Shown: in pieces, positions 1 through 36,911 of the stretch
Layout of the letters: each line of letters starts with the position of its first letter
Numbering within the stretch: the stretch's first letter is position 1
From: a virus
Length of the DNA: 36,911 nt
Strand: one strand, 5' to 3'
Virus record (IMG/VR): IMGVR_UViG_3300045988_065836
Span: 1-36,911 of that record
Notes under the pieces: generated by a model
Database searches by the model: none
Told to the model about the DNA's origin: nothing
The model's input: only the letters and a program-made list of their open reading frames with translations
Program-made: the position numbers and the translations under genes

Positions 1-119
1 AGAAGGTACGAGGCCAAGAAGAAATTACTGGCCGCCCGGGGCCTGACCCCGGCGGCCTATGAAAAGGCACTGCGGGAGCTGACCCAAAAGCTAAAACTGT
101 AGGCCGTCACCCCGCCCCG
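1..119. repeat. Terminal direct repeat copy 1 (119 bp), identical to 36793..36911; signature of a circular or terminally redundant genome
   Basis: Bases 1-119 (agaaggtacgagg...gtcaccccgccccg) recur exactly at 36793-36911, which ends the window. Implied unit length is 36792 bp. Confidence 0.95.
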
Positions 120-349
120 TCCATCTGGGCGGGGCTCTTTTTTTGCCCTCTTTCGTCGGTCTCGCCCATCAGGTAGGGCACGGAAACACCAAAATAGTCA
201 GCAAGCACCTTTTGACTTGCGGCATTGGGGGTTCTCCCTTGCCGCCATAGCCCGAACTGATTTTTATTTAGTCCACAATCAGCGAGTACCTGCTTTTCCT
301 TGATGCCCTTTTCTTCCGTCAAGGCTGTAATACGCTCAATAAATGTCAT
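107..349 (-). CDS. XRE-family HTH transcriptional repressor (cI-like)
   Basis: ATG at 349 is preceded by GGAGGT (complement of 357-362). The product MTFIERITALTEEKGIKEKQVLADCGLNKNQFGLWRQGRTPNAASQKVLADYFGVSVPYLMGE is a classic HTH_3 fold. It is divergent from the early promoter. Confidence 0.85.
   Translation of the reverse strand: MTFIERITALTEEKGIKEKQVLADCGLNKNQFGLWRQGRTPNAASQKVLADYFGVSVPYLMGETDERGQKKSPAQMDGAG
110..144 (+). terminator. Rho-independent terminator ending the DnaB operon
   Basis: 8-bp GC stem CCCCGCCC (110-117) / GGGCGGGG (127-134) with a 9-nt loop, followed by CTC and a T7 run (138-144). It lies just after the TAG of the small ORF (100-102 in this copy). Confidence 0.7.
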
Positions 350-4417: not shown

Positions 4418-4795
4418 ATGCGGAGCAAATACGGCAGCCGGAAACAAACGGTTTCCGGGATAACCTTTGACAGCCGCAGAGAGGCCAGACGGTTCCAGGA
4501 GCTTCGGCTTCTGGAACTGGCCGGGCAAATCTCTGGTTTGCGGTTGCAGGTAAAATACGTTCTGATTCCCACCCAGCGAGCACCGAGTTTTGAGGTCTAT
4601 AAGCGCGGCCCGAAAAAGGGCCGCAGGAAGCCCGGGGAAGTCCTGGAAAAGGAATGTTCCTACATTGCGGACTTTGTTTACACAAAGGGCGACGAAACCG
4701 TTGTGGAGGACGCAAAGGGCGTAAGAACAAAAGAATATATCATCAAGCGAAAGCTGATGCTGGAACGGTACGGAATCCGGATAAAGGAAGTGTAA
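4418..4795 (+). CDS. DUF1064-family protein (predicted PD-(D/E)xK-like nuclease/resolvase)
   Basis: KYGSRKQTVSGITFDSRREARRFQELRLLELAG...YIADFVY...VVEDAKG...YIIKRKL matches the DUF1064 pattern. Confidence 0.7.
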   Translation: MRSKYGSRKQTVSGITFDSRREARRFQELRLLELAGQISGLRLQVKYVLIPTQRAPSFEVYKRGPKKGRRKPGEVLEKECSYIADFVYTKGDETVVEDAKGVRTKEYIIKRKLMLERYGIRIKEV

Positions 4796-4797
4796 GC

Positions 4798-5523
4798 GTG
4801 AGAACACAATTTACATTTTACGAAAGCTTTTACAAGGCCATCAGCCGAATCAAGAAAAAGGCTGATCGTGCCGACGCTTACGATATCATATGCTCCTACG
4901 CGCTTTTTCAAGAAGAGCCTGATTTGGATTCTGTTTCGGACGCTGTAGCGATTGCTTTTGAGTTGCTTCGGCCTATTTTGGATAAAGCCAGAGAAAAGGC
5001 CGAAAACGGGAAAAACGGTGGAAGCAAACCGAAAGCAAACGCTAAGCAAAGCGAAAGCAAAACGGAAGCAAACGCTAAGGTAGAGCAAGCCGTAAGCAAG
5101 AAAGAGAAAGAGAAAGAGAAAGAGGTAGAGATAGAGGTAGAGAAAGAGATAGATAATATACATCCTACGGATGTTTGCGCGGAGCTGCCGAGCAGCCCCC
5201 CGCCTGCTGCGGTGCTGCCGCTGGTTGATGGCTCTGATTTCCCGATTGCCCAGGAAACGGTGGACGAGCTTTCGAGGCTTTACCCGGCTGTTGACGTAGA
5301 CCAACAGCTGCGGAATATGCGGGGCTGGCTTTTGGCAAACCCCAAGAATCGCAAAACCAAAGCCGGAATCATGCGGTTTGTAAACTCCTGGCTTTCCCGG
5401 GAGCAGAACCAGGCACGGCCGCAGAACCGGCAGCAATTCCAGGAAGGCACAAAGGCCAAGGAGCTTGATAAATTTTATGGCATGGCCGCAGATTGGGTCA
5501 GCAGCCGGGAGGTGACGGGATGA
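4798..5523 (+). CDS. Putative replisome organiser / replication initiator (DUF6291-like N-terminus, DnaD-like C-terminus)
   Basis: GTG 4798 follows AAGGAAG. The N-terminus is FTFYESFYKAISRI...ICSYALFQEEPDL. The C-terminus is LRNMRGWLLANPKNRKTKAGIMRFVNSWLSREQ. ATGA-coupled to the loader gene. Confidence 0.6.
   Translation: MRTQFTFYESFYKAISRIKKKADRADAYDIICSYALFQEEPDLDSVSDAVAIAFELLRPILDKAREKAENGKNGGSKPKANAKQSESKTEANAKVEQAVSKKEKEKEKEVEIEVEKEIDNIHPTDVCAELPSSPPPAAVLPLVDGSDFPIAQETVDELSRLYPAVDVDQQLRNMRGWLLANPKNRKTKAGIMRFVNSWLSREQNQARPQNRQQFQEGTKAKELDKFYGMAADWVSSREVTG
5101..5154. repeat. Nine tandem purine-rich hexamers (aaagag x4, gtagag, atagag, gtagag, aaagag, atagat)
   Basis: Read directly from the sequence. 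The repeat encodes KEKEKEKEVEIEVEKEID inside the initiator gene. A 13-nt direct repeat AGCAAACGCTAAG lies just upstream at 5034 and 5067. Confidence 0.85.
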
Positions 5524-6119
5524 ACGCACAGGAATTCGCGAATTTTGCCGCAGCGCTGCGGACGTACTACAGCCGGGAAAACATCCTGCCGAACAAGCAG
5601 GCAATGGAACTCTGGTTTCGGCAGCTGCAAGATATCCCCTACGAGGCAGCGGAGGCAATCCTGAGCAAGTGGGTTGCGACAAACAAATGGTCACCGTCCA
5701 TCGCTGATATCCGGGACGGTATGGCCGAAATCCAGAACGGCGGAGCTGCTGAGGACTGGGGCGAGGGGTGGAATAAGGCCATGGCAGCAATCCGCAAATA
5801 TGGCAGCTACAACGAGGCGGAAGCCCTGGATTCGTTGCCGCCCCTGACGCGGGAGACCGTGCGGCGGCTGGGCTATAAGAGCCTGTGTTGGAGCGAGAAT
5901 CAGATTGCAGATCGGGCGAATTTTCGGCAGGTGTATGAAATCCTGGAAAAACGGCAGGTAGAGGATCGCAAAATCCCGCTGCCGGTACGGGAGAAAATCG
6001 CCGGGCTTACGGCCAGATTTGCCAAGCCGCTGGAAGTGGAAACCCAGGCACTCCCTCGCCCTCTGGATGATGATGAACGGGCGGCCATCCGCCGCATGAT
6101 GGAAGGAAACACTGCATGA
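5520..6119 (+). CDS. G39P-like replicative helicase loader
   Basis: ATGA overlap with the upstream gene. ELWFRQLQDIPYEAAEAILSKWVATNKWSPSIADIRD resembles the SPP1 G39P loader family. Confidence 0.6.
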   Translation: MNAQEFANFAAALRTYYSRENILPNKQAMELWFRQLQDIPYEAAEAILSKWVATNKWSPSIADIRDGMAEIQNGGAAEDWGEGWNKAMAAIRKYGSYNEAEALDSLPPLTRETVRRLGYKSLCWSENQIADRANFRQVYEILEKRQVEDRKIPLPVREKIAGLTARFAKPLEVETQALPRPLDDDERAAIRRMMEGNTA

Positions 6120-6918: not shown

Positions 6919-7395
6919 ATGCCGAATGCAAGGCCAAAAACCACTCCGGACGGGTTTGAACGTTCCAAACGTGGCGGTATCATCCTGAACAACGATAACG
7001 ACGATGCCCGCCGGGTGCTTGAAACCTGTTACGCAAAACAGAAAAAGATGGTCAACCCCATTGTTGACTGGGAAGACAGCGACATTTGGGAGTTCATCAA
7101 GGCTGAAAATGTGCCTTACTGCGGCCTTTACGACGAGGGTTTCAAGCGGCTTGGGTGCATCGGCTGTCCCATGGCTGGGAAACACCGGAAAATAGAGTTT
7201 GATCGTTGGCCGAGATACAAACAGCTGTACCTAAACGCATTCGCACGGATGCAGGAGGCCAGAGTTGCCGCTGGGAAAGCGCCGCTTTGTGCTGATTGGG
7301 TGCAAAATCCAACACCCCAGGATATTTTCGACTGGTGGATGGAGGAACCGTGGCTCATCGGGCAGATGTCGATGTTTGAGGACGGTGAAAAATGA
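6919..7395 (+). CDS. PAPS-reductase-family protein, C-terminal segment (same frame as 6499..6843; homology resumes at 6844)
   Basis: The frame is open from 6844 (AGRYTLTGVRWAESSRR...). It contains NPIVDWEDSDIWEFI, PYCGLYDEGFKRLGCIGCPMAG. The first ATG is at 6919. Confidence 0.85.
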   Translation: MPNARPKTTPDGFERSKRGGIILNNDNDDARRVLETCYAKQKKMVNPIVDWEDSDIWEFIKAENVPYCGLYDEGFKRLGCIGCPMAGKHRKIEFDRWPRYKQLYLNAFARMQEARVAAGKAPLCADWVQNPTPQDIFDWWMEEPWLIGQMSMFEDGEK

Positions 7396-8156
7396 AAATA
7401 GCCAGGGTATTCCCAACAAAAACCAGTATGTCCCCCACTGACCCGCTGGCTTTCTTTGGGCCACCGACCATTGAAGCTATGGCGGCGGAGCCGGATGAGG
7501 TGCATATCAGCGTTACTTTCTCCTGGGATTTGGAGAAAGCAGACGAGTTGTTTTACCAGTGGGAAATGCTGGGTGTCCCCGTGGAAGTGGGTGGGCCTGC
7601 GTTCGGAGACAGAATGGGCGACACGTTTACCCCTGGAATGTATGTACGGGAGGGCATGACGATCACAAGCCGGGGCTGCCCGAAGGACTGTTGGTTTTGC
7701 GATGTGGGAAAATGCGCCAACGGGAAGGTGATCGAGCTGCCGGTGCAGGATGGGTGGAATATCCTAGACGATAACATCTTGGCAACCAGCGATGACCATT
7801 TTCGTGAGGTCACGAAAATGCTGAAACGGCAAAAACAGAGGCCGGTATTTTCCGGCGGGCTGGAACCGGAGTACATGACCCCGTGGAAAGCAGAGCAGTT
7901 AATGTCCATCAATCCGCAAACGCTTTATACCGCCTATGACACCATGGACGACTACGACCATTTAAGGGCTATGTCGGACATGCTGCATAATGCGGGGCTT
8001 AGCTGGAAAAGCCACCAGGTAAAGTGCTATATGCTGTGCGGATACCCGGAAGATAGCATGGATGCAGCGGAGAAACGAGCCAAACAAATCATGGGGCTGG
8101 GATTTCTGCCCTTTGCCATACCGCGTTACCAAAGATTTTGTGGAAGCATTAACTAG
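7392..8156 (+). CDS. Radical SAM protein, translationally coupled to the PAPS-reductase-like gene
   Basis: CX3CX2C motif in ITSRGCPKDCWFCDV. ATGA overlap at 7392-7395. The C-terminus may be disrupted (see findings). Confidence 0.8.
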   Translation: MKIARVFPTKTSMSPTDPLAFFGPPTIEAMAAEPDEVHISVTFSWDLEKADELFYQWEMLGVPVEVGGPAFGDRMGDTFTPGMYVREGMTITSRGCPKDCWFCDVGKCANGKVIELPVQDGWNILDDNILATSDDHFREVTKMLKRQKQRPVFSGGLEPEYMTPWKAEQLMSINPQTLYTAYDTMDDYDHLRAMSDMLHNAGLSWKSHQVKCYMLCGYPEDSMDAAEKRAKQIMGLGFLPFAIPRYQRFCGSIN

Positions 8157-12079: not shown

Positions 12080-12562
12080 GTGGCAAAATTAACGGCAAAA
12101 CAGCAAAGATTTGTCGATGAATATTTGATTGATTTGAATGCTACCCAGGCCGCAATCAGAGCCGGGTATTCGGCTCAAACCGCATACAGAACAGGCGCAG
12201 ACAACCTCAGAAAACCTCAAATCAAATCGTACATGGAATCCCGAATGGCCGAAAAGGAAGCGGCCTTGATTGCTGACCAGGATGAGGTTTTGAAATATCT
12301 AACGTCCGTAATGCGTGGGCAGTCTCGGTCATCCGTTGTGGTTGTGGAGAGCGCCGGTGATTTTATAAGCAAGGCCCGGGAAATGGAGAAATCGCCGGAC
12401 GAAAAAGAGCGCCTGAAAGCTGCGGAGCTTCTGGGCAAACGGTATGGGCTGTACAGCGGCGGCAATAAGCAGAAAGCAAACGGGCAGCAGAAGAATAATT
12501 TGCTGGATGCAATATCCAGCATGGAGGAGATAAACACGGATGATTTACCAGAGGTTGAGTAA
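12080..12562 (+). CDS. terS: Terminase small subunit (Terminase_2-like)
   Basis: GTG 12080 gives (M)AKLTAKQQRFVDEYLIDLNATQAAIRAGYSAQTAYRTGADNLRKPQI, the canonical TerS N-terminus. Overlaps TerL. Confidence 0.8.
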   Translation: MAKLTAKQQRFVDEYLIDLNATQAAIRAGYSAQTAYRTGADNLRKPQIKSYMESRMAEKEAALIADQDEVLKYLTSVMRGQSRSSVVVVESAGDFISKAREMEKSPDEKERLKAAELLGKRYGLYSGGNKQKANGQQKNNLLDAISSMEEINTDDLPEVE

Positions 12563-13787
12563 GCGGCAAAAGCTGGCTATGCTATGGTGGAATCAGCCGA
12601 AATTCAGGAACCGGGATGCAATCATCTGTGACGGGTCCATTCGTTCCGGAAAAACCGTCAGCATGGCCGTGGGATTTATCCTGTGGAGTATGTCAAATTT
12701 TGACGGCCAAATTTTCGGAATCTGCGGGAGAACGATACAGAGTTTGCGGCGAAATGTCATCTTGCATCTGCACGACTGGGTGCCGGAGGATTTGGAAATC
12801 ACGGAACGCCGTGGGGAAAATATGCTGGTGGTTTCCGATGGCTGCGGCCACGAAAATATCTATTACTTGTTCGGGGGCAAAGATGAAAGCTCGTATGCCT
12901 TGGTACAGGGTATCACGCTGGCCGGTGCACTGCTGGACGAAGTGGTCCTTATGCCGCAATCCTTCGTGGAACAGGTCATTGCACGTTGTTCTGTGGCTGG
13001 GTCAAAGCTTTGGTTTAACTGCAACCCCGGCGGGCCGGAACATTGGTTTAACAAAAACTGGATTCTTAAAAGCAAGGAAATGAACGCCCTGCATATCCAC
13101 TTTACCATGCAGGATAATTACAGTCTGGCACCGGAAATCCGGGAACGATACGAACGCATGTACACCGGTGTGTTCTACCAGCGTTACGTCCTGGGCCTCT
13201 GGGTGTTGGCTGAGGGGCTTGTGTACAGTTTTGGAGAGGAAAACATAACCGACGAACGGCCAAAGGGTGCGGAGTACTACATAAGCATCGACTACGGCAC
13301 GTTGAATCCGTTTTCGGCTGGCCTGTGGAGCGTCACCGGCGACAAGGCCGTGAGAATCAAAGAGTACTATTACAGCGGGCGGGAGAACAGCCGGAACATG
13401 ACGGATGCGGAATACTGCGACAAGGTGGCGGAGCTGGCCGGGGGATATGAGATTAAACGGGTTATTGTTGATCCGTCCGGAGCATCCTTTATCGAGGCAC
13501 TGCGGCAGCGAAAATTCAAGGTGCTGGGAGCCAAAAACGACGTTCTGGACGGCATAAGGCGAACGTCTGTTTATCTAAGAGATGGGAACATTAAAATCCA
13601 TCGGTCATGCGCGGACAGCATCCGGGAATTTGGATTGTACCGATGGGACGAAAAAAAGAACGATGATAGCGTCATAAAAGAAAATGACCACGCAATGGAC
13701 GATATCCGTTACTTTTGCAATACAATCATGCGATACAAGGTAAAGAAAAAGCAGGATATTCCGCCGGAAGTGGCGAGACTTTTATAA
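12540..13787 (+). CDS. terL: Terminase large subunit (PBSX/XtmB-like)
   Basis: Walker A GSIRSGKT, Walker B LLDE, and nuclease motifs ISIDYG, VIVDPSGAS, NDHAMDDIRY. Confidence 0.93.
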   Translation: MIYQRLSKRQKLAMLWWNQPKFRNRDAIICDGSIRSGKTVSMAVGFILWSMSNFDGQIFGICGRTIQSLRRNVILHLHDWVPEDLEITERRGENMLVVSDGCGHENIYYLFGGKDESSYALVQGITLAGALLDEVVLMPQSFVEQVIARCSVAGSKLWFNCNPGGPEHWFNKNWILKSKEMNALHIHFTMQDNYSLAPEIRERYERMYTGVFYQRYVLGLWVLAEGLVYSFGEENITDERPKGAEYYISIDYGTLNPFSAGLWSVTGDKAVRIKEYYYSGRENSRNMTDAEYCDKVAELAGGYEIKRVIVDPSGASFIEALRQRKFKVLGAKNDVLDGIRRTSVYLRDGNIKIHRSCADSIREFGLYRWDEKKNDDSVIKENDHAMDDIRYFCNTIMRYKVKKKQDIPPEVARLL

Positions 13788-30980: not shown

Positions 30981-31238
30981 ATGATTAACTGGACTGTGCG
31001 TATCAAGAACAAGAACTTCTGGCTGGCGGTAATTCCCGCCGTACTGCTGCTGATTCAGGCCGTGGCCGCCGTGTTCGGATTCACCTTGGACCTGGGCGAC
31101 ATCGGCAATAAGCTGATTGCTGTGGTAAACGCGGTATTCGGCGTGCTGGTGGTGCTGGGCGTGGTCGTTGATCCTACCACGGCGGGCATCTCTGATAGCA
31201 AGCAGGCACGCGGGTATAATTGGCCGAAGGAGGATTGA
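30981..31238 (+). CDS. Holin (phage phi-LC3 family)
   Basis: MINWTVRIKNKNFWLAVIPAVLLLIQ...VVDPTTAGISDSKQARGY matches the phi-LC3 holin pattern. Confidence 0.82.
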   Translation: MINWTVRIKNKNFWLAVIPAVLLLIQAVAAVFGFTLDLGDIGNKLIAVVNAVFGVLVVLGVVVDPTTAGISDSKQARGYNWPKED

Positions 31239-31245
31239 CGGCTGA

Positions 31246-31482
31246 GTGGACAAATCCCGGATTAACCGGGTGATCGTGGAAGAATTTGACCGGCTCGCAT
31301 TTTTGACCGAGCTGGAAAAGGGAATCCTAATCACCCGGGCCGCCGGGAAAAGCCAATATTGGCAAACGCAGAAATACAATGTGTCCCAAGTCACAGTTAC
31401 CAGGGCCGTCCAACGACTGCAACGGAAATACGATGCAGTAAAGGGGTTTAGTGCCATACTCCCGGACGACCTGATTATTTGA
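31246..31482 (+). CDS. Sigma-70 region-4-like HTH protein
   Basis: GTG start follows GAAGGAGGA. LTELEKGILITRAAGKSQYWQTQKYNVSQVTVTRAVQRLQRKY. Confidence 0.5.
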   Translation: MDKSRINRVIVEEFDRLAFLTELEKGILITRAAGKSQYWQTQKYNVSQVTVTRAVQRLQRKYDAVKGFSAILPDDLII

Positions 31483-31506
31483 TCGCAAAATGACGATTTT
31501 TTAAGC

Positions 31507-31548
31507 AAAAACAGGCGAAACGATGCTGATTCGTTCGCCTGTTTTTTT
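31507..31548 (+). terminator. Strong rho-independent terminator ending the late/lysis operon
   Basis: CAGGCGAA(A)CG (31512-31522) / CGTTCGCCTG (31532-31541), then a T7 run. An A-run lies upstream. Confidence 0.8.
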
Positions 31549-31573
31549 GTTACCATAAAAGCGGAAAGGGGCG

Positions 31574-31960
31574 ATGCCTATGGGCGAATTCCACAGTTTC
31601 AATCCAAACCCCCGGGCAGCAAAAGTCGGGGATTGCGCCGTCAGAGCAGTTGCAAAGGCCCTGGGTATCAGCTGGTACGAGGCATATACCCTACTTGCGG
31701 CTGAGGGCCTGGAACAATGCGATATGCCCAGCGCAAACAACGTATGGGGCGCGGTGCTTCGAAAAAACGGATTCCGGCGAGCGGCAATACCGGCAGAATG
31801 CCCGGACTGCTACACCGTGCGGGATTTTATCCGGGAATACCCAGCGGGAACATACGTTGTCGCCCTGAAAAACCACGTCGTAACTGTCTGCGACGGCGAA
31901 TTATACGATACCTGGAACTCAATGGACGAAAACCCAATCTATTTTTGGAGGCGTGAATGA
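31574..31960 (+). CDS. Putative papain-like cysteine peptidase fold protein
   Basis: Candidate catalytic residues are Cys in VGDCAVRAV, His in KNHVVTV and Asp in YDTWNS. The start may instead be 31580. Confidence 0.45.
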   Translation: MPMGEFHSFNPNPRAAKVGDCAVRAVAKALGISWYEAYTLLAAEGLEQCDMPSANNVWGAVLRKNGFRRAAIPAECPDCYTVRDFIREYPAGTYVVALKNHVVTVCDGELYDTWNSMDENPIYFWRRE

Positions 31961-32952
31961 TGGCAAACCCCTATATGCAGCCCAATTACCAAGGCGGCTA
32001 TTTCCAGCCGAACTATTTCAGCCCGCAAATGCAGCCGATGCAGCAGACGCAAATGCCGATGCAGGGACAGCAGGCCCCGCAGGACGACCGGAATGTGCTG
32101 CAATCGGTTATCCGTGGTCACAACGCAAAGCCCATGGTATTCCGCAGCTTCAACCCGCCTATGAGCATGAGCAATTGGGCAAACCAGTTTATCACAGAGC
32201 CAGATACCCAGGCTCTTACATTCCACACTGACTATACTATGATTCCGCCGGACTGGCTGGGAGATGCCTTTATTCTGGAAGCGGAGCGCCTAAAGGCCAC
32301 AAACCCCAAAGCATTCGAGCATGAGTATTTGGGCATTGCTACCGGCACAGGTGCGGAAGTATTCCCGGCACTGGAAGTGCGGGAGATCACCCCCGAAGAA
32401 ATCCAGAACATGGAATATTTCTTTTACGGCGTGGATTTCGGTTTTGCCGCTGATCCGGCGTGCTTCCTCCGGTGCAGCTATGACCGGAAGCATGAAACCA
32501 TTTACCTGCTGAACGAAATCTACAAGCGTGGCCTCTCGAACAGGCAACTTGCGGCAGAAATCAAGCCCCTTATTGATGGGGACAGCCCCGGCAGCGTCTA
32601 CAACGAGTTCTACCATGAATTTCTCCAAGGCAGCCCGCCACCCGTCTACTGCGACGCAGCAGAACCGAAAAGCATTGCCGACCTCCGGGACAGCGGAATC
32701 AAAAAAGCCCTGGCCTGCCACAAGGAGCCGGGATGTGTAGAATACCGGGTGAAGTGGTTGCAGCACCGGCGCATTGTCGTAGACCCAGCCAGAACGCCCA
32801 ACGCTGCAAGGGAACTTGCAAACTACGAGTACGAGAAGGATAAGGACGGCAACATTCTAAGCCGTCTACCAGACAAAGACAACCACAGTATTGACAGCCT
32901 GGCCTATGCCCTGGATAGGGAAATCTACCACCGCAAGGGCCAGAGCGCATAA
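31957..32952 (+). CDS. Second, N-terminally truncated terminase-large-subunit homologue (nuclease domain only) with a Q/P/Y-rich N-terminus
   Basis: FRSFNPP...HTDY...NPKAFEHEYLG, GVDFGFAADP, VYCDAAEPKSIADLR, DKDNHSIDSLAYAL parallel the C-terminal half of a PBSX TerL. There is no Walker A or B. The first 45 aa are MMANPYMQPNYQGGYFQPNYFSPQMQPMQQTQMPMQGQQAPQDD. Confidence 0.8.
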   Translation: MMANPYMQPNYQGGYFQPNYFSPQMQPMQQTQMPMQGQQAPQDDRNVLQSVIRGHNAKPMVFRSFNPPMSMSNWANQFITEPDTQALTFHTDYTMIPPDWLGDAFILEAERLKATNPKAFEHEYLGIATGTGAEVFPALEVREITPEEIQNMEYFFYGVDFGFAADPACFLRCSYDRKHETIYLLNEIYKRGLSNRQLAAEIKPLIDGDSPGSVYNEFYHEFLQGSPPPVYCDAAEPKSIADLRDSGIKKALACHKEPGCVEYRVKWLQHRRIVVDPARTPNAARELANYEYEKDKDGNILSRLPDKDNHSIDSLAYALDREIYHRKGQSA

Positions 32953-32968
32953 GGAGGAACTTATACAT

Positions 32969-33280
32969 ATGGGCTATTTACGAATCAAGTGCTACTATTG
33001 TGGCGGAACATGGGAAGTTTACCACCGGGATCTTCATAGCCGGTACAAGAAAGCCAGAGAATGCCCGCATTGCTTCCAAAAAATAGACGAGCAGACATGG
33101 GACAATCAGATTTTCCCGGCATACAACGCACTGGATGATGCGAATAGAGAGCTATTCAAAGACCATCTCGGCCACCATGTACCGCTCTTTGAAGTCAGCT
33201 ATGAATCTAATACGATTTTCAAAAATGCCAAGAACTGGCCCAGCTACTCAGACGATGATGATTCATCGGATATTGAGTAA
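32969..33280 (+). CDS. Zn-ribbon protein with an acidic tail
   Basis: AAGGAGGA RBS. CYYCGG...CPHC. The C-terminus is SYSDDDDSSDIE. Confidence 0.6.
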   Translation: MGYLRIKCYYCGGTWEVYHRDLHSRYKKARECPHCFQKIDEQTWDNQIFPAYNALDDANRELFKDHLGHHVPLFEVSYESNTIFKNAKNWPSYSDDDDSSDIE

Positions 33281-33300
33281 AGTGGTCGAAATCGACCACT
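33281..33300 (+). terminator. Perfect 9-bp palindrome hairpin right after the cassette stop
   Basis: AGTGGTCGA aa TCGACCACT followed by TT. The T tail is weak. Confidence 0.35.
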
Positions 33301-33512
33301 TTAATGCCCGCCACAGCAGCGCCCTGGGCCTCACAGTCTGGGGCGCTTTCTACGCGAAAAAGCGGGCCACCGAAGTGACCCGCCAGCGCTCCGAGAATTA
33401 GGTGGGGCGACACTCCCACATCTCCTTACGAGGGTTGGTCGATGTGTTTTATATTGTTCAGTTTCTTGTAATAATGTTTTGACTTTTTAATGATTCTCAG
33501 GAAAAACAAGCT

Positions 33513-33543
33513 AAAAGGCGCTCTTTTTTTGAGTGCCTTTTTT
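33513..33543. terminator. Bidirectional terminator downstream of the minus-strand island gene
   Basis: AAAA-GGCGCTC-TTTTTTT-GAGTGCC-TTTTTT: a 7-bp stem including one G-T pair. Confidence 0.7.
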
Positions 33544-33602
33544 CAGCGTTTACTACCGTGTTCACACACCTGTTAGGCAAATGTTAGGCAAGCGAATAAC
33601 CT

Positions 33603-34484
33603 CTACCAATTCTTAATCCGCACATACTTAGGGCGTGCCTCTGGACTGTTAAACAGAAAATTTTGATACTCTAGTAACAGCTCAACGGATGCACCCTTTT
33701 TTATTTTTTCCTTGTACTCCGAACACTTTTCACAAAACGAATTAAATGTATCTGTGTATTTAGGAGTAGCCCTGTATTCATCAGCTCTCCACCTAAGTCT
33801 TTCGTACTCTGCCAGCCTCTTTTTCTCCAATTTGTCCTTTATTGCTTTCACAGCCTCCGCACAGGAATAATCTCCGTATTCAGGGTAAGGCGAATGGCGA
33901 CTACAATACTTTACCTTTAAGTTCGATGTCAAAAAATATCTTCCACAATGAGCACATTTGGAGATGGAATATCTATTGTAAACACAACAGTGTACCAATG
34001 AAAAAACAAAATCTACCATTGTGCGGCATGAATAATACCGGAACACATTGGGGTCAAACTCAGACTCCTCATTAGCCTGTTTATCAAGTATGCGCCATTT
34101 GTCTAACTCTTTTGAGAATCTTTCAAAAGCCAATAGTGTTAGGATGGAGTTAATATTTCTATACCTGTCTGATGATTCACCTTTTTTGTATTCGATGCTG
34201 ATTCCATAAAAAGATCGGAAATCATCAAAATTCTCCAGATTAGCCTTTTTCAGGTAATCAGTTTTCTCAAAATAATCAGATAGCAGCTGCCATGCATCCC
34301 TTGGGTCTGCATAATTAAAGAACTCGTTCGACTGCACACCATGTTCAAATCGTTCGGTTAGCTTCTCGTATATTTCACATAAAAATGTTTCAGCGGAATA
34401 TTGGTAAGCACTTTTCGTTGAAAACAAATAGACCGTTCCACTCCGTATCTCTAAACTGACAACCGACTCAGCTTCTTTTGCCAT
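33603..34484 (-). CDS. Cys-rich 293-aa protein in an AT-rich island (reminiscent of DUF6076-type proteins of Clostridial mobile elements)
   Basis: Minus-strand ATG at 34484 follows AGGAGAAGG. Contains KCAHCGRYF...KYCSRHSPYPEYGDYSCAEAV. Its composition is far more AT-rich than the surrounding genome. Confidence 0.6.
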   Translation of the reverse strand: MAKEAESVVSLEIRSGTVYLFSTKSAYQYSAETFLCEIYEKLTERFEHGVQSNEFFNYADPRDAWQLLSDYFEKTDYLKKANLENFDDFRSFYGISIEYKKGESSDRYRNINSILTLLAFERFSKELDKWRILDKQANEESEFDPNVFRYYSCRTMVDFVFSLVHCCVYNRYSISKCAHCGRYFLTSNLKVKYCSRHSPYPEYGDYSCAEAVKAIKDKLEKKRLAEYERLRWRADEYRATPKYTDTFNSFCEKCSEYKEKIKKGASVELLLEYQNFLFNSPEARPKYVRIKNW

Positions 34485-34609
34485 GGTTCCTTCTCCTGAA
34501 ATGTTTCGTATTTTCAATTCTAATTATATCATCGAAAAATACCAAAATCAACAACAAAAAGTGAATTAAAATGAAGTCACCAAACGAAAGGAAAGGAGCC
34601 TTTACGAAA

Positions 34610-34804
34610 ATGGAAAATACAATCCCCGTTTTTTTATCTATCCGTGAAACGGCGAAATCTGGAATTCTTACAGAGTATCGGTTACGCTGCATGGAAAAGT
34701 CTGGAGAACTGCCCTGTATCTACGCTGGCAAAAAATGCCTCATCAATGTTGACTTGCTCATTGCACAGCTCAATGATTTACAGAAAGTAGGTACTCAAAA
34801 ATGA
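34610..34804 (+). CDS. Excisionase-family HTH protein
   Basis: AAAGGAG RBS. FLSIRETAKSGILTEYRLRCMEKSGELPCIYAGKKCLINVDLL. Confidence 0.7.
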   Translation: MENTIPVFLSIRETAKSGILTEYRLRCMEKSGELPCIYAGKKCLINVDLLIAQLNDLQKVGTQK

Positions 34805-35022
34805 CCCAATGTGAACGCATTCTCCGCCACCTCCAGGACGGTAACACACTGACCCAGGCCTAGGCCTTTTTGGAGTATGGAGTCGGCCGACTGTCTAGCC
34901 GAATATGTGATCTCCGGCGGGCGGGCTACCCTATCAAGGGCGAGTTCGTCACCCAGAAAAACAGATACGGGGAGCCTTGTACATTTGTTCGGTATTCGCT
35001 GGATGAAACCAAGGGGGCTTGA
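34801..35022 (+). pseudogene. HTH_39-like winged-helix gene interrupted by an in-frame TAG at 34861
   Basis: MTQCERILRHLQDGNTLTQA*AFLEYGVGRLSSRICDLRRAGYPIKGEFVTQKNRYGEPCTFVRYSL. ATGA-coupled at both ends. The stop lies inside the conserved motif. Confidence 0.6.
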
Positions 35023-35024
35023 TT

Positions 35025-35510
35025 ATGGCCGCTCTGAGAGATAAACATCCATCCTGGTTCAAGCTGAAAACCGAGCGGCGGCAGCTTATCAAAGAGTTGC
35101 CACCGGAAACGGCAGTCACCGTTCTTCTAGCCTGTCTGGATTATTTGGAAATCGGAAGTTTTCCTGATTCCATGCATCCGATTGAGAGAATCGCCGCTTC
35201 TGCTTTTCTTCCTGACTTGGAAGAAGCCTGGGCAAAGTATACCAAACGGGTATCAAATGGCTCAAAGGGTGGTGCCCCCAAGGGCAATAAAAACGCCCAG
35301 AAAACAAAACAACCATACGGTTGCATTCGCCCCCATATGGGGCCATTCGGGGCAGAAGTAGAAGAAGACCCCCTAAAGGGGGATTCTTCTACTAACTGGG
35401 GTGTAGATAATAGGGACAGGGAACCGCCCCTTTGTGGGGGCGGCCCCCCTACCCGGTTCTACTTTGACGATTCCGGAAACCTTGTTGACAGGGGGGATGA
35501 TTGCTTATGA
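35025..35510 (+). CDS. Hypothetical protein upstream of DnaB (second DUF6291-like N-terminus; possible replication accessory protein)
   Basis: SWFKLKTERRQLIKELPPETAVTVLLACLDYLEIGSFPD resembles the N-terminus of 4798..5523. ATGA-coupled to dnaB. Confidence 0.55.
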   Translation: MAALRDKHPSWFKLKTERRQLIKELPPETAVTVLLACLDYLEIGSFPDSMHPIERIAASAFLPDLEEAWAKYTKRVSNGSKGGAPKGNKNAQKTKQPYGCIRPHMGPFGAEVEEDPLKGDSSTNWGVDNRDREPPLCGGGPPTRFYFDDSGNLVDRGDDCL

Positions 35511-36763
35511 ACCCAGAGCAATACCTTTGTGGGGCTATCCTGATTTCTGGCGAAGCAGTCATGAAAGCCATTCGGGGCATTGTCACACCTGATTGTTTCC
35601 AGCTGGAAGCCTATCGAGCTATCTATGTGGCGGGCCTGTCCCTGCTGGATGCCGGGGAACCTATTGACCCGGTTTCCATCAAGGCCCAGGCAAAGCGGCA
35701 GGGCGTGGAGCTGTCAAACAAACTGCTTTCCGAGCTGATGGAAGTCGTTCCGTCCGCTGCCTACTGTGTCGAATATGCCCACCGTGTGGCGGAGGATGCC
35801 CGCACACGGGCTGTAAAGGAATTAGCTGAGCGAATACAGAGCGATACCGTTTCCAGCGCTGACGAGCTTTTAGCAACTTTGCAGCGAGAGACCGAGGCAA
35901 TACGGGGCAGCAGCTACCAGCGAGGGCTATTGACCCCCAATGATACCCTGCACCGGTTCATGGACTATGTCGTCCGAGCTGGCGAAAAGCGGGACAATTT
36001 CATCTCCACCGGATTTCCAAGGCTGGACGATATTCTAGGTGGTGGATTCATCCGGGGAGGGCTGTACATACTGGGGGCGAGGCCCGCCGTGGGCAAGTCC
36101 ACTTTCGGTATTAACCTAGCTGACAACATAGCAGGCAACGTCCTTTTTGTCTCCCTGGAAATGTCCGTGGAGCAGATCACGGCGAAACGGATATCCCGCC
36201 GTATCGGCTGTTCTTCCGCCCGCTTGCTGTCCGGTCAGCTGTCAGATCAAGCGTGGGAGAAGGTGGCCATGGCTTCCAGTGACATTTCACAACGGGGGCT
36301 ATATCTCAATAACCGCTATGATTTAACCGTGCAGCAAATCGCCTTGCTGGCCCAGGCCGTGCCAGAACTGCGGGCCGTGATTGTGGACTACCTGGGCCTT
36401 ATCCAGCCTGCCACTCGGAGCGCATCAACCTATGAAAATATCTCCCAAATCAGCCGGGAGTTGAAGCGCATGGCCTTGTCTCTGAATGTGCCAGTTATAT
36501 GCCTGTGTCAGCTGTCCAGGCAGGTTGAGAGCCGCCAGAACAAGCGCCCTATGCTGTCAGACCTGCGGGACAGTGGGGCCATCGAGCAAGATGCGGACGG
36601 GGTGCTTTTCCTCTATCGGGATGACTATTATGCCGGAGGCCCTGCCGATGGGCAGCCGTCAGCCGTGGATTTGAGCGTGGCAAAGAACCGGCACGGGCAG
36701 ACCGGCGAGACAAGTTTCAACCTGTGGCTCAAGTACAGCTACTTTAAGGAGGCGGCGGGATGA
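35507..36763 (+). CDS. dnaB: DnaB-family replicative DNA helicase (G40P-like)
   Basis: N-terminal domain (LCGAILISGEAV...YRAIYVAG...PIDPVSI), Walker A GARPAVGKST, IVDYLGLIQ, QLSRQVE, DSGAIEQDAD. Confidence 0.93.
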   Translation: MNPEQYLCGAILISGEAVMKAIRGIVTPDCFQLEAYRAIYVAGLSLLDAGEPIDPVSIKAQAKRQGVELSNKLLSELMEVVPSAAYCVEYAHRVAEDARTRAVKELAERIQSDTVSSADELLATLQRETEAIRGSSYQRGLLTPNDTLHRFMDYVVRAGEKRDNFISTGFPRLDDILGGGFIRGGLYILGARPAVGKSTFGINLADNIAGNVLFVSLEMSVEQITAKRISRRIGCSSARLLSGQLSDQAWEKVAMASSDISQRGLYLNNRYDLTVQQIALLAQAVPELRAVIVDYLGLIQPATRSASTYENISQISRELKRMALSLNVPVICLCQLSRQVESRQNKRPMLSDLRDSGAIEQDADGVLFLYRDDYYAGGPADGQPSAVDLSVAKNRHGQTGETSFNLWLKYSYFKEAAG

Positions 36764-36894
36764 AACGAAAGTCGAAGCGCCGAAACAGCTGGAGAAGGTA
36801 CGAGGCCAAGAAGAAATTACTGGCCGCCCGGGGCCTGACCCCGGCGGCCTATGAAAAGGCACTGCGGGAGCTGACCCAAAAGCTAAAACTGTAG
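36760..36894 (+). CDS. 44-aa basic protein coupled to dnaB (its 3' part is duplicated at 1..102)
   Basis: ATGA overlap at 36760-36763. Product is MKRKSKRRNSWRRYEAKKKLLAARGLTPAAYEKALRELTQKLKL, followed by the terminator. Confidence 0.5.
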   Translation: MKRKSKRRNSWRRYEAKKKLLAARGLTPAAYEKALRELTQKLKL

Positions 36895-36911
36895 GCCGTC
36901 ACCCCGCCCCG
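36793..36911. repeat. Terminal direct repeat copy 2 (119 bp)
   Basis: Exact copy of 1-119. It contains the 3' end of the small ORF 36760..36894 and the start of the terminator hairpin. Confidence 0.95.

Follow-up and report, generated by a model that had tools for sequence, protein, structure and literature searches.

Organization of the locus

The window analysed here covers positions 1 to 36,911 of the IMG/VR virus record IMGVR_UViG_3300045988_065836, and the locus under study comprises three ORFs on its plus strand. Gene 1 (31574-31960) encodes 128 amino acids, or 126 if the start at 31580 preferred by gene callers is used; ORF2 (31957-32952), which overlaps gene 1 in an ATGATG sequence, encodes 331 amino acids; and gene 3 (32969-33280) encodes a Zn-ribbon protein of 103 amino acids counted from the ATG. 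Upstream of them, an intrinsic-terminator-like hairpin with a U-run (31504..31551, plus strand; fold of -21.8 kcal/mol, z = -5.0) closes the lysis/late operon. This hairpin is native phage sequence, the stretch 31227-32088 sharing 94-95% identity with parent-type phages. The original prediction, drawn from the sequence alone, described a terminator-bounded, self-contained cassette of three genes. Its anatomy of the locus is borne out as regards the three ORFs, their overlap and the strong late-operon terminator. The bounding itself holds on the upstream side and fails on the downstream one, where the hairpin at 33278-33303, 3′ of gene 3, lacks a U-tract and lies inside a 47-aa island ORF (33258..33401, plus strand, according to the island gene tables). 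Neither an Rfam scan nor a tRNA scan of the window gave a hit.

As had also been stated, the phage carries a complete TerS/TerL pair of its own at 12080..13787 (plus strand). These proteins match Terminase_2 (E = 3.8e-37) and Terminase_6N/6C, families different from those of ORF2, and no significant pairwise similarity was detected between ORF2 and the phage's own TerL. The two observations rule out that ORF2 is a recent paralogue of that TerL, the term under which it had first been described.

The terminase part of ORF2

From 32088 to 32952 (plus strand), ORF2 consists of the 3′ part of a PBSX-type terL gene of an integrative island. This part comprises 287 codons and the stop and encodes the RNase-H-like nuclease domain in full, preceded by the final ~84 residues of the ATPase domain (C-motif and lid). 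Only 2 of these 865 nt differ from island L004 (99.8% identity). At the protein level, ORF2 residues 45-331 share 99% identity with codons 176-462 of the full-length TerL P0001 (462 aa), the similarity beginning at P0001 residue 176. The one amino acid difference is S194 in ORF2 versus L in P0001, and the window residue is the ancestral state; there is therefore no sign of relaxed constraint in data that have no power to detect it, and the two nucleotide differences cannot be assigned to the hybrid branch.

Pfam Terminase_3C matches ORF2 residues 160-320 over profile positions 1-154 of 155 (E = 1.5e-13), and the ATPase profile Terminase_3 matches over positions 113-200 of 201 only. Against TIGR01547, with its curated cut-off of 105.05 bits, ORF2 falls below the threshold with 54.4 bits (profile positions 113-386), versus 135.3 bits for intact P0001. 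The nuclease motifs GVDFGF, CDAAEP and DNHSIDSL, which had been singled out from the sequence, are present and align with the nuclease domain of SPP1 G2P (PDB 2WBN); the terL part was also aligned to 4IDH. The absence of the Walker motifs was likewise correctly recognized: in P0001, Walker A (GGRGSCKS, residues 59-66, aligned to Sf6 gp2) and Walker B (FVWFEE, residues 160-165) both lie upstream of the breakpoint at residue 176, and in the alignment to P0001, neither Walker A nor Walker B with its catalytic Glu is found in ORF2.

Compared with PBSX-family TerL proteins (Terminase_3 plus Terminase_3C; TIGR01547), ORF2 is thus a near-exact copy of the C-terminal 287 residues, with the nuclease domain and its acidic motifs complete, but the first 175 residues are gone and an unrelated phage gene supplies the N-terminus. 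A terS gene directly 5′ of ORF2 is absent as well, its place being held by gene 1. Since both Walker motifs and the N-terminal region are missing, ORF2 cannot serve as a packaging motor, and what remains of the terminase is ~84 residues of a broken ATPase fold together with an intact nuclease domain.

That ORF2 might be a relic of the phage's own former packaging module is ruled out by its 99.8% identity to a gene of a separate island, and the position is occupied in parent phages by morons and an integrase. Of the options first put forward, a relic of a packaging module fails in this form, while the one tying it to a satellite or helper element points in the right direction.

The Q/P-rich head and the parent phages

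The first 44 codons of ORF2 (31957..32087, plus strand) encode the Q/P/Y/M-rich segment reported earlier, which had been taken to stand in place of the Walker motifs in a variant TerL. It instead belongs to a phage gene of family phrog_21718 (E = 3.8e-13 with the intact Q/P gene as query). ORF2 matches related phage contigs over residues 1-45 only, and in all 66 of these contigs, the gene next downstream of gene 1 encodes an intact Q/P-headed protein of 130-140 aa that reads on ...QDDRIWVASESAA...FVRLWDSNK... where the window switches to terL. Terminase or Zn-ribbon sequence was found in none of the 66 contigs, and gene 3 had no match anywhere in them. The head of ORF2 is the N-terminus of an unrelated phage gene, severed at codon 44/45, and this Q/P gene, the conserved partner of gene 1, was destroyed by the fusion.

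The parent is a temperate SPP1-like siphophage of gut Oscillospiraceae, with the gene order lysis genes, terminator, gene 1, 130-140 aa Q/P-headed gene, morons, integrase, repressors and early genes. In the parent phages L083-L088, the interval between the Q/P gene and the early genes contains morons, an integrase of 363-366 aa and HTH repressors; none of these parent-type genes of the interval was found in the window.

Gene 1

Gene 1 belongs to family phrog_3754 (E = 3e-31), has 2247 detected homologues and is an unrelated, native phage gene. The Cys/His/Asp arrangement on which it was originally called a papain-like peptidase is real, as C19, H99 and D110 are conserved in that order. Among 35 homologues compared, down to 56% identity, D18, C19 and D110 are invariant and H99 is present in at least 90%; C74 and C77 are invariant too. 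The AF2 model has a pLDDT of 94.5 and may represent a papain-like fold, its top, though weak, matches being Josephin-2 and the C39 domains of ComA and PCAT1 (E = 0.06-0.7, TM 0.47-0.48). Searches of gene 1 against sequence families gave no match above threshold. Like papain-like cysteine peptidases (C39 of ComA/PCAT1 and the Josephin deubiquitinases, compared with gene 1 only), the protein has a Cys at the N-terminus of a helix (GDC), followed by a His and an Asp; unlike them, it has an additional invariant CPDC pair.

The Zn-ribbon gene and the donor-type island

Both features ascribed to gene 3, a CxxC...CxxC pair and a DDDDSSDIE tail, are present. The four cysteines (C8, C11, C32 and C35) are invariant in seven island variants, down to 58% identity, and the two CxxC pairs are invariant or nearly so in 17 database homologues; the acidic tail is not conserved among the island variants. 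With an AF2 model of pLDDT 72, a PDB fold search returned no significant match, only generic zinc-finger noise. The gene lies directly 3′ of TerL in every island copy and relative examined, and is thus an island gene that travels with terL.

The donor-type island is an integrative element of ~11 kb from Oscillospiraceae with the order TerS-TerL-Zn-ribbon. In contigs L003-L010, the context is int, DnaB, TerS (117 aa, directly upstream of TerL), TerL and the 103-aa Zn-ribbon gene, followed by the host UDG and PBP5 genes. Gene 1 is missing from these islands, which do have TerL and the Zn-ribbon gene. The window matches island L004 from 32076 to 33434 with 98.5% identity (blastn), and the high-identity tract stops at 33434. 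Beyond it, a low-GC stretch encodes a DUF6076 protein (33603..34484, minus strand, 293 aa), a distant homologue (31% identity) of the product of a 279-aa minus-strand gene at the equivalent place of the island. The DUF6076 protein was found on the hybrid contigs only, and a pattern scan of IMG/VR retrieved no relatives. An island-type replication module follows at 35025..36894 (plus strand), with a DUF6291 protein (161 aa), a DnaB-family helicase (35507-36763, 418 aa) and, at its end, a 44-aa ORF (36760-36894). The stretch ~35810-36911 is 100% identical to L004, and the 5′ part of the module is 55-85% identical. No exact donor of 33434-35810 was found in the databases. In no known island variant does the 47-aa ORF adjoin a DUF6076 gene, and therefore, either a third breakpoint or an unsampled donor is needed.

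The definitions of PICI and cfPICI used here are those of de Sousa et al. 2023 (PMC10085698), who count terL as a cfPICI marker and describe portal, capsid and head-tail genes in cfPICI. The donor island resembles both classes in its integrase, regulator, replication module, terS and size, and in having a relative of ~11.3 kb whose assembly from a faecal virus-particle data set is circular, the sole hint of induction and packaging by a helper phage. Unlike PICI, the island carries terL; unlike cfPICI, it has no portal, capsid, head-tail adaptor or connector, either among its tabulated genes or among the unannotated ones, which were scanned with Pfam and PHROG. Tail and lysis genes are also absent. 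This abundant Oscillospiraceae island family, which encodes TerS, TerL and a Zn-ribbon protein and lacks capsid genes, lies outside both definitions. What the window contains is a piece of such an island and no satellite in itself.

Junctions and architecture of the hybrid

The right junction, at 32087..32088 (plus strand; phage ...CAGGACGAC followed by CGGAATGTG... island), was placed by aligning the window with both parent phage L015 and island L004 and by a table of differences. The reading frame is kept across it, ORF2 codon 44/45 meeting island TerL codon 176, with ~1 bp common at the join and a GGCCC(C)GCAG patch 10 bp upstream. The left junction, at ~119-129 (plus strand; island ...CACCCCGCCCCG followed by TCCATCTGGG... 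phage), shows 10 bp of microhomology and cuts a Cro/CI-type HTH gene of the phage (107..349, minus strand), which encodes 80 aa in the window versus 115 aa in parent phages (translation compared with L087). The intact HTH protein has regulator matches to phrog_8 and phrog_4; look-ups of the truncated protein with two alternative starts found nothing. Bases 1-119 exactly repeat 36793-36911, which closes the circle. Between them, the two breakpoints swapped the integrase block of the parent for 4.8 kb of island-type DNA that comprises the terL 3′ part and the Zn-ribbon, DUF6076, DUF6291 and DnaB genes.

Mosaic junctions generated by illegitimate recombination are known in tailed phages, as described by the modular or mosaic model. 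The hybrid resembles them in its sharp switch from phage to foreign sequence, in the near or complete lack of homology where the two meet, in the truncation of genes at both joins and in the replacement of a whole functional block, but its partner is a small integrative island with a terminase and without capsid, tail or lysis genes. The window documents, at base resolution, a natural case in which a temperate gut phage and a small integrative island with terminase genes exchanged DNA, the phage losing its integrase and gaining a DnaB-type helicase module. A prophage integrated site-specifically in terL was also considered and ruled out, as the window lacks an integrase, the joins are not flanked by att-like repeats and phage genes are cut at both.

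The fusion occurs on 2-4 near-identical contigs, versus at least 35 index blocks for intact TerL, and a 32-mer spanning the junction is absent from IMG/VR and the JGI metagenomes. The right junction recurs in separately assembled ENA and Logan contigs with 99.96-99.99% identity, from samples that are not necessarily independent. Three proteins that might have represented a recurrent truncated TerL (P0029, P0033 and P0048) resemble fragments that arise from an internal start or a contig edge, and P0033 is untraceable.

Origin of ORF2 and alternative explanations

We consider it highly likely that ORF2 is a chimeric junction ORF and that the putative cassette is the scar of a recombination between phage and island. 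The temperate parent phage recombined with an ~11 kb integrative island bearing the TerS-TerL-Zn-ribbon and DUF6291/DnaB modules through two illegitimate joins with little or no homology, one inside the phage Q/P gene and inside island terL, the other after the island 44-aa ORF and inside the phage HTH gene. The 3′ end of the Q/P gene, the morons and the integrase were thereby exchanged for the 4.8 kb of island-type DNA. By chance, the right join is in frame, so that 44 phage codons run into island TerL codons 176-462, and the Zn-ribbon gene was carried along with the neighbouring terL. ORF2 is probably translated, because its start codon and its overlap with gene 1 are inherited from the destroyed phage gene. 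The data establish where ORF2 comes from, while the absence of a function is what we infer, and a dedicated role, for instance interference with packaging of the island, has no support and is not expected. In our reading, the active-site residues are intact only because so recent an event has left no time for them to decay. A domain that looks intact behind an unusual low-complexity head may be nothing more than a fresh fusion.

An open, in-frame ORF with intact motifs and inherited translation signals does have the look of a selected function. However, the chance of an in-frame join is one in three, and the event is too recent for decay.

The three genes have separate origins and do not form a functional cassette, and it is here that the original prediction fails. 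It is extremely unlikely that they work together in defence or interference as a self-contained module with a free nuclease at its core, even though a terminator lies upstream, the three ORFs are close-packed, the nuclease motifs are intact and a Cys-His-Asp set is conserved in gene 1. The three genes occur together in none of the 66 phage relatives, the islands have TerL and the Zn-ribbon gene without gene 1, the conserved partner of gene 1 is the Q/P gene broken by the fusion, and the downstream terminator is absent. PADLOC returned no matches for genes 1 and 2 (ORF2) and a single one for gene 3 (E = 0.0096). With no defence-family match and no conservation of the truncated form, the superinfection-exclusion or interference nuclease initially suggested finds no support; ORF2 proved to be a one-off truncation without a conserved partner on the gene 1 side, although its catalytic residues are not degraded. 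The locus holds neither a new nuclease family nor a new defence cassette. An artefact is very unlikely too, whether the assembler crossed between phage and island via identical stretches or the sequence is a chromosomal tandem instead of a phage genome. Hybrid and island do have 1.1 kb of 100% identical DnaB sequence in common, contig L011 leaves this stretch into island TerS and not into the phage, and the circle of the window closes within it. Neither junction, however, lies in shared sequence (microhomology of ~1 bp and 10 bp), the Logan contig and the ENA scaffold repeat the right junction and continue through the Zn-ribbon, DUF6076, DUF6291 and DnaB 5′ genes, and the window crosses the whole 1.1 kb unbroken, which, judging from assembler behaviour, suggests that there were no competing branches. 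The junction is no assembly chimera, because separate contigs share it and the join has no k-mer-length common sequence; a tandem integration of the element would leave the origin of ORF2 unchanged.

Two further readings give the chimeric ORF a purpose, and we grant each a slim chance, slightly slimmer for the one in which the truncated TerL is kept as a decoy against the island. Nearly identical to the C-terminal two-thirds of the island TerL, the decoy could poison the terminase ring of the island or occupy its docking site on the portal, so that packaging of island DNA into phage capsids is blocked. Consistent with it, the ORF is in frame, intact and placed behind inherited translation signals, it shares 99.8% identity with terL of the co-resident island, the TerS and TerL of the island are of other families than those of the phage, and the island, whose ~11.3 kb relative is circular in the faecal virus-particle sample, would need phage capsids. 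The fusion is nevertheless confined to one near-clonal lineage that offers no divergence for measuring selection, the N-terminal third of the ATPase fold is gone and the remnant may not fold, and the helper-satellite tie between phage and island is putative. Under the other reading, a helper phage would have acquired, from a satellite-like island of its own, the replication module along with a dominant-negative terminase fragment, an anti-satellite weapon, and would persist through recombination at DnaB. Having lost its integrase, it would enter the resident island by Campbell-type homologous recombination via the 1.1 kb of identical DnaB sequence. The donor islands would then be an undescribed class of gut satellites with TerS and TerL and without capsid genes, and L011, which runs from the hybrid DnaB straight into island TerS, would support such an entry.

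A truncated island terminase fused to a phage gene

All three ORFs of the trio lie where the original prediction placed them: gene 1, encoding a Cys-His-Asp protein, at 31574-31960, ORF2 (331 aa) at 31957-32952 and gene 3, encoding a Zn-ribbon protein (103 aa counted from the ATG), at 32969-33280. The trio had also been described as terminator-bounded, which holds on one side: the upstream hairpin and U-run at 31504-31551 (-21.8 kcal/mol, z = -5.0 on folding) form a convincing terminator, while the hairpin 3' of gene 3 (33278-33303) falls within another ORF, of 47 aa, and is not accompanied by a U-tract.

ORF2 matched the Pfam Terminase_3C nuclease model end to end, but covered no more than the final 88 positions of the Terminase_3 ATPase model. 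A search of 5.8 billion proteins recovered thousands of full-length TerL relatives of ~460 aa and P0001, a 462-aa island TerL with 99% identity to ORF2 residues 45-331. At the nucleotide level, the terL part (32088-32952) shows 2 differences in 865 nt from the island reference L004, one synonymous and the other giving S194 in the window and L in the island; S or a similar residue also occupies this position in more distant homologues. Alignment to solved structures located Walker A of P0001 at residues 59-66, Walker B at residues 160-165 and the nuclease domain at residues 258-454 (SPP1 G2P, 2WBN, E = 3.6e-28). Because the terL part of ORF2 begins at P0001 residue 176, ORF2 is missing Walker A and Walker B, in agreement with the first reading of this gene; the C-motif, the lid and the complete nuclease domain are retained. 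The closest known proteins are ordinary PBSX-type TerLs, yet ORF2 scored 54 bits against TIGR01547, below its 105-bit cut-off, whereas intact P0001 reached 135 bits. The phage does own a complete TerS and TerL at 12080-13787, as claimed, but these belong to other families (Terminase_2 and Terminase_6N/6C) with no significant similarity to ORF2, which is thus not their paralogue.

The N-terminus was traced in 66 viral contigs encoding gene 1 at 81-98% identity. In all 66, the next gene after gene 1, again with the ATGA overlap, encodes an intact protein of 130-140 aa (the Q/P gene, phrog_21718) that starts with the same Q/P/Y/M-rich head and continues ...QDDRIWVASESAA...FVRLWDSNKP.FYEKR...; ORF2 matched these contigs over residues 1-45 only. 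Taken together, the alignments show ORF2 to be 44 phage-gene codons fused to island terL codons 176-462, and show this fusion to be the product of one recent replacement event. It represents a new example of an already known kind of event.

Two joins and the exchanged block

In a three-way nucleotide alignment, the right join reads ...CCGCAAGATGAC AGAATATGGGTT in the phage, ...CAGTTCGCC CGGAATGTGCTG in the island and ...CCGCAGGACGAC joined to CGGAATGTGCTG in the window. It is in frame, with ~1 base shared and a GGCCC(C)GCAG patch just upstream. Parent-type phages of ~41-42 kb (L083-L088) served as reference for what separates the Q/P gene from the early genes: several small genes plus a sigma-like HTH gene, a tyrosine integrase of 363-366 aa, a 225-aa HTH_3 repressor with further minus-strand genes (in most variants) and a 115-aa Cro/CI-type HTH gene. 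Homology between window and parents restarts at window base 110, inside the latter gene, the window copy being cut to 80 aa; this left join runs from island ...CACCCCGCCCCG into phage TCCATCTGGG..., with 10-bp microhomology. The right join lies in the Q/P gene and the left join in the HTH gene; by these two illegitimate joins, at least 3.7 kb of phage DNA, including the integrase, gave way to island-type DNA (4.8 kb). Among the closest known parallels are the mosaic junctions that typify tailed phages.

The segment gained comprises the 3' part of terL, the Zn-ribbon gene, the 47-aa ORF, a DUF6076 gene, a 64-aa ORF, a DUF6291 gene, a DnaB gene and a 44-aa ORF. Window positions 32076-33434 correspond to L004 6802-8160 (98.5% identity), 35055-36911 to L004 4073-5875 (88% overall, with the last 1.1 kb at 100%) and 1-130 to L004 5757-5886 (98.5%). 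The middle, from 33434 to ~35810, resembles the sampled islands only distantly (the DUF6076 proteins are 31% identical), and its exact donor was not found among these or database relatives. A marked low-GC stretch (33500-34900; 36-42% against ~52-57% either side) takes in the DUF6076 gene together with the region upstream of it, which would fit a separate origin of this portion of the segment.

The neighbours of ORF2

Gene 1 belongs to phrog_3754, a large phage family with 2247 homologues, in which D18, C19, D110, C74 and C77 are invariant and H99 nearly so. The Cys/His/Asp set noted in the first reading is thus conserved, and the AlphaFold model is confident (pLDDT 94.5). Its best PDB matches are papain-like cysteine peptidases, namely Josephin-2 and the ComA and PCAT1 C39 domains. 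As their scores are weak (E = 0.06-0.7, TM ~0.48), the peptidase identity is plausible but not established. The conserved neighbour of gene 1 is the Q/P gene destroyed by the fusion; in the 66 relatives, the two form a strictly conserved, translationally overlapping pair directly past the lysis-operon terminator. The hybrid phage tolerates loss of the Q/P gene, at least in the short term.

Gene 3 had no match in any of these 66 contigs. It directly follows TerL in all island copies and relatives examined, including those with differing replication or accessory modules, and this synteny ties it to the island terminase rather than to gene 1. All four Cys are invariant; the acidic tail that had been highlighted is not conserved. 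The model (pLDDT 72, moderate) has a Zn-ribbon hairpin, a long helix and a disordered tail, and a PDB fold search gave no meaningful match. The trio is shown not to be a conserved unit.

Authenticity and probable status of ORF2

The hybrid is rare, found on 2-4 contigs that may share a single cohort of origin, and the junction 32-mer was absent from IMG/VR and JGI metagenomes. There is little chance that it is an assembly artefact: the 331-aa ORF recurs unchanged, together with its surroundings, on a scaffold from ENA (37,036 bp) and on a Logan contig, each sharing 99.96-99.99% identity with the window, and a k-mer assembler could not have produced the joins because neither lies in shared sequence.

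Translation of ORF2 is probable, since it has kept the replaced gene's start codon and overlap. The product would be unable to translocate DNA, and its ~84-residue ATPase-fold remnant is unlikely to fold alone. The nuclease site is probably intact only for want of time to decay. We consider it likely that ORF2 is a scar without dedicated function. That it is retained as a decoy against the island terminase seems improbable, and we likewise give a small probability to the defence cassette originally proposed for the trio.

The donor island family and continuing exchange

P0001 is encoded on an ~11 kb island in chromosomes of the Oscillospiraceae type. The island's genes run in the order MobC/NikA, YodL, TTRAP and RelB/ParE; a minus-strand gene of 279 aa, then HTH_39; DUF6291, DnaB helicase and the 44-aa ORF; TerS (117 aa), TerL (462 aa), the 103-aa Zn-ribbon protein and the 47-aa ORF; and PBECR with others and a tyrosine integrase, followed by host UDG and PBP5 genes. 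Such islands form an abundant integrative family in gut Oscillospiraceae (L003-L010, L091-L093, L095, L097-L101), with an integrase, regulators, a constant core of TerS(117)-TerL(~460)-Zn-ribbon(~100) and a variable replication module of DnaB, IstB/DnaC or primase-helicase type. One relative from a faecal virus-particle data set, MT836267.1 (L095), assembles as an 11.3 kb circle closed by a terminal repeat of 124 bp. PICI and cfPICI satellites are the closest known elements. The islands carry terL, used as a cfPICI marker by de Sousa et al. 2023 (PMC10085698), but gene tables and Pfam/PHROG scans revealed no capsid, portal, connector, tail or lysis genes, and the family matches neither definition. 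It is the most interesting by-product of this analysis, though outside the finding on ORF2.

The window closes into a circle, its end being an exact repeat of bases 1-119, and the lack of interruption in this circle speaks for the existence of a free form, circular or permuted. No integrase was present in gene tables or Pfam scans of the window regions examined. The hybrid genome lacks the integrase and 225-aa HTH repressor of its ~41-42 kb relatives, and the phage may therefore have turned obligately lytic. The 3' half of DnaB and the 44-aa ORF (35810-36911 and 1-119) are 100% identical to L004 over 1.1 kb; the 5' half of DnaB reaches only 55-85% identity. One scaffold (L011, 14800-15166) leads out of this identical stretch into island TerS rather than phage, which could reflect a wrong assembly turn in a sample holding both elements or a hybrid copy integrated into an island via homologous recombination. 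Together, the identical stretch and this scaffold suggest ongoing homologous exchange, or possibly integration of the integrase-less phage into the island.

The native early region (5493-6119 and 4654-5523) encodes a DUF6291 protein, then a protein weakly matching the SPP1 G39P helicase loader, but no helicase; with the island-derived segment come a DnaB-family helicase and another DUF6291 gene. Elsewhere in the early region (window 6919-8156; L079-L088), DNA-modification-type genes (including PAPS-reductase-like, radical-SAM-like, Mom-like, methyltransferase and Lar-like ones) differ among otherwise near-identical phages of this family.
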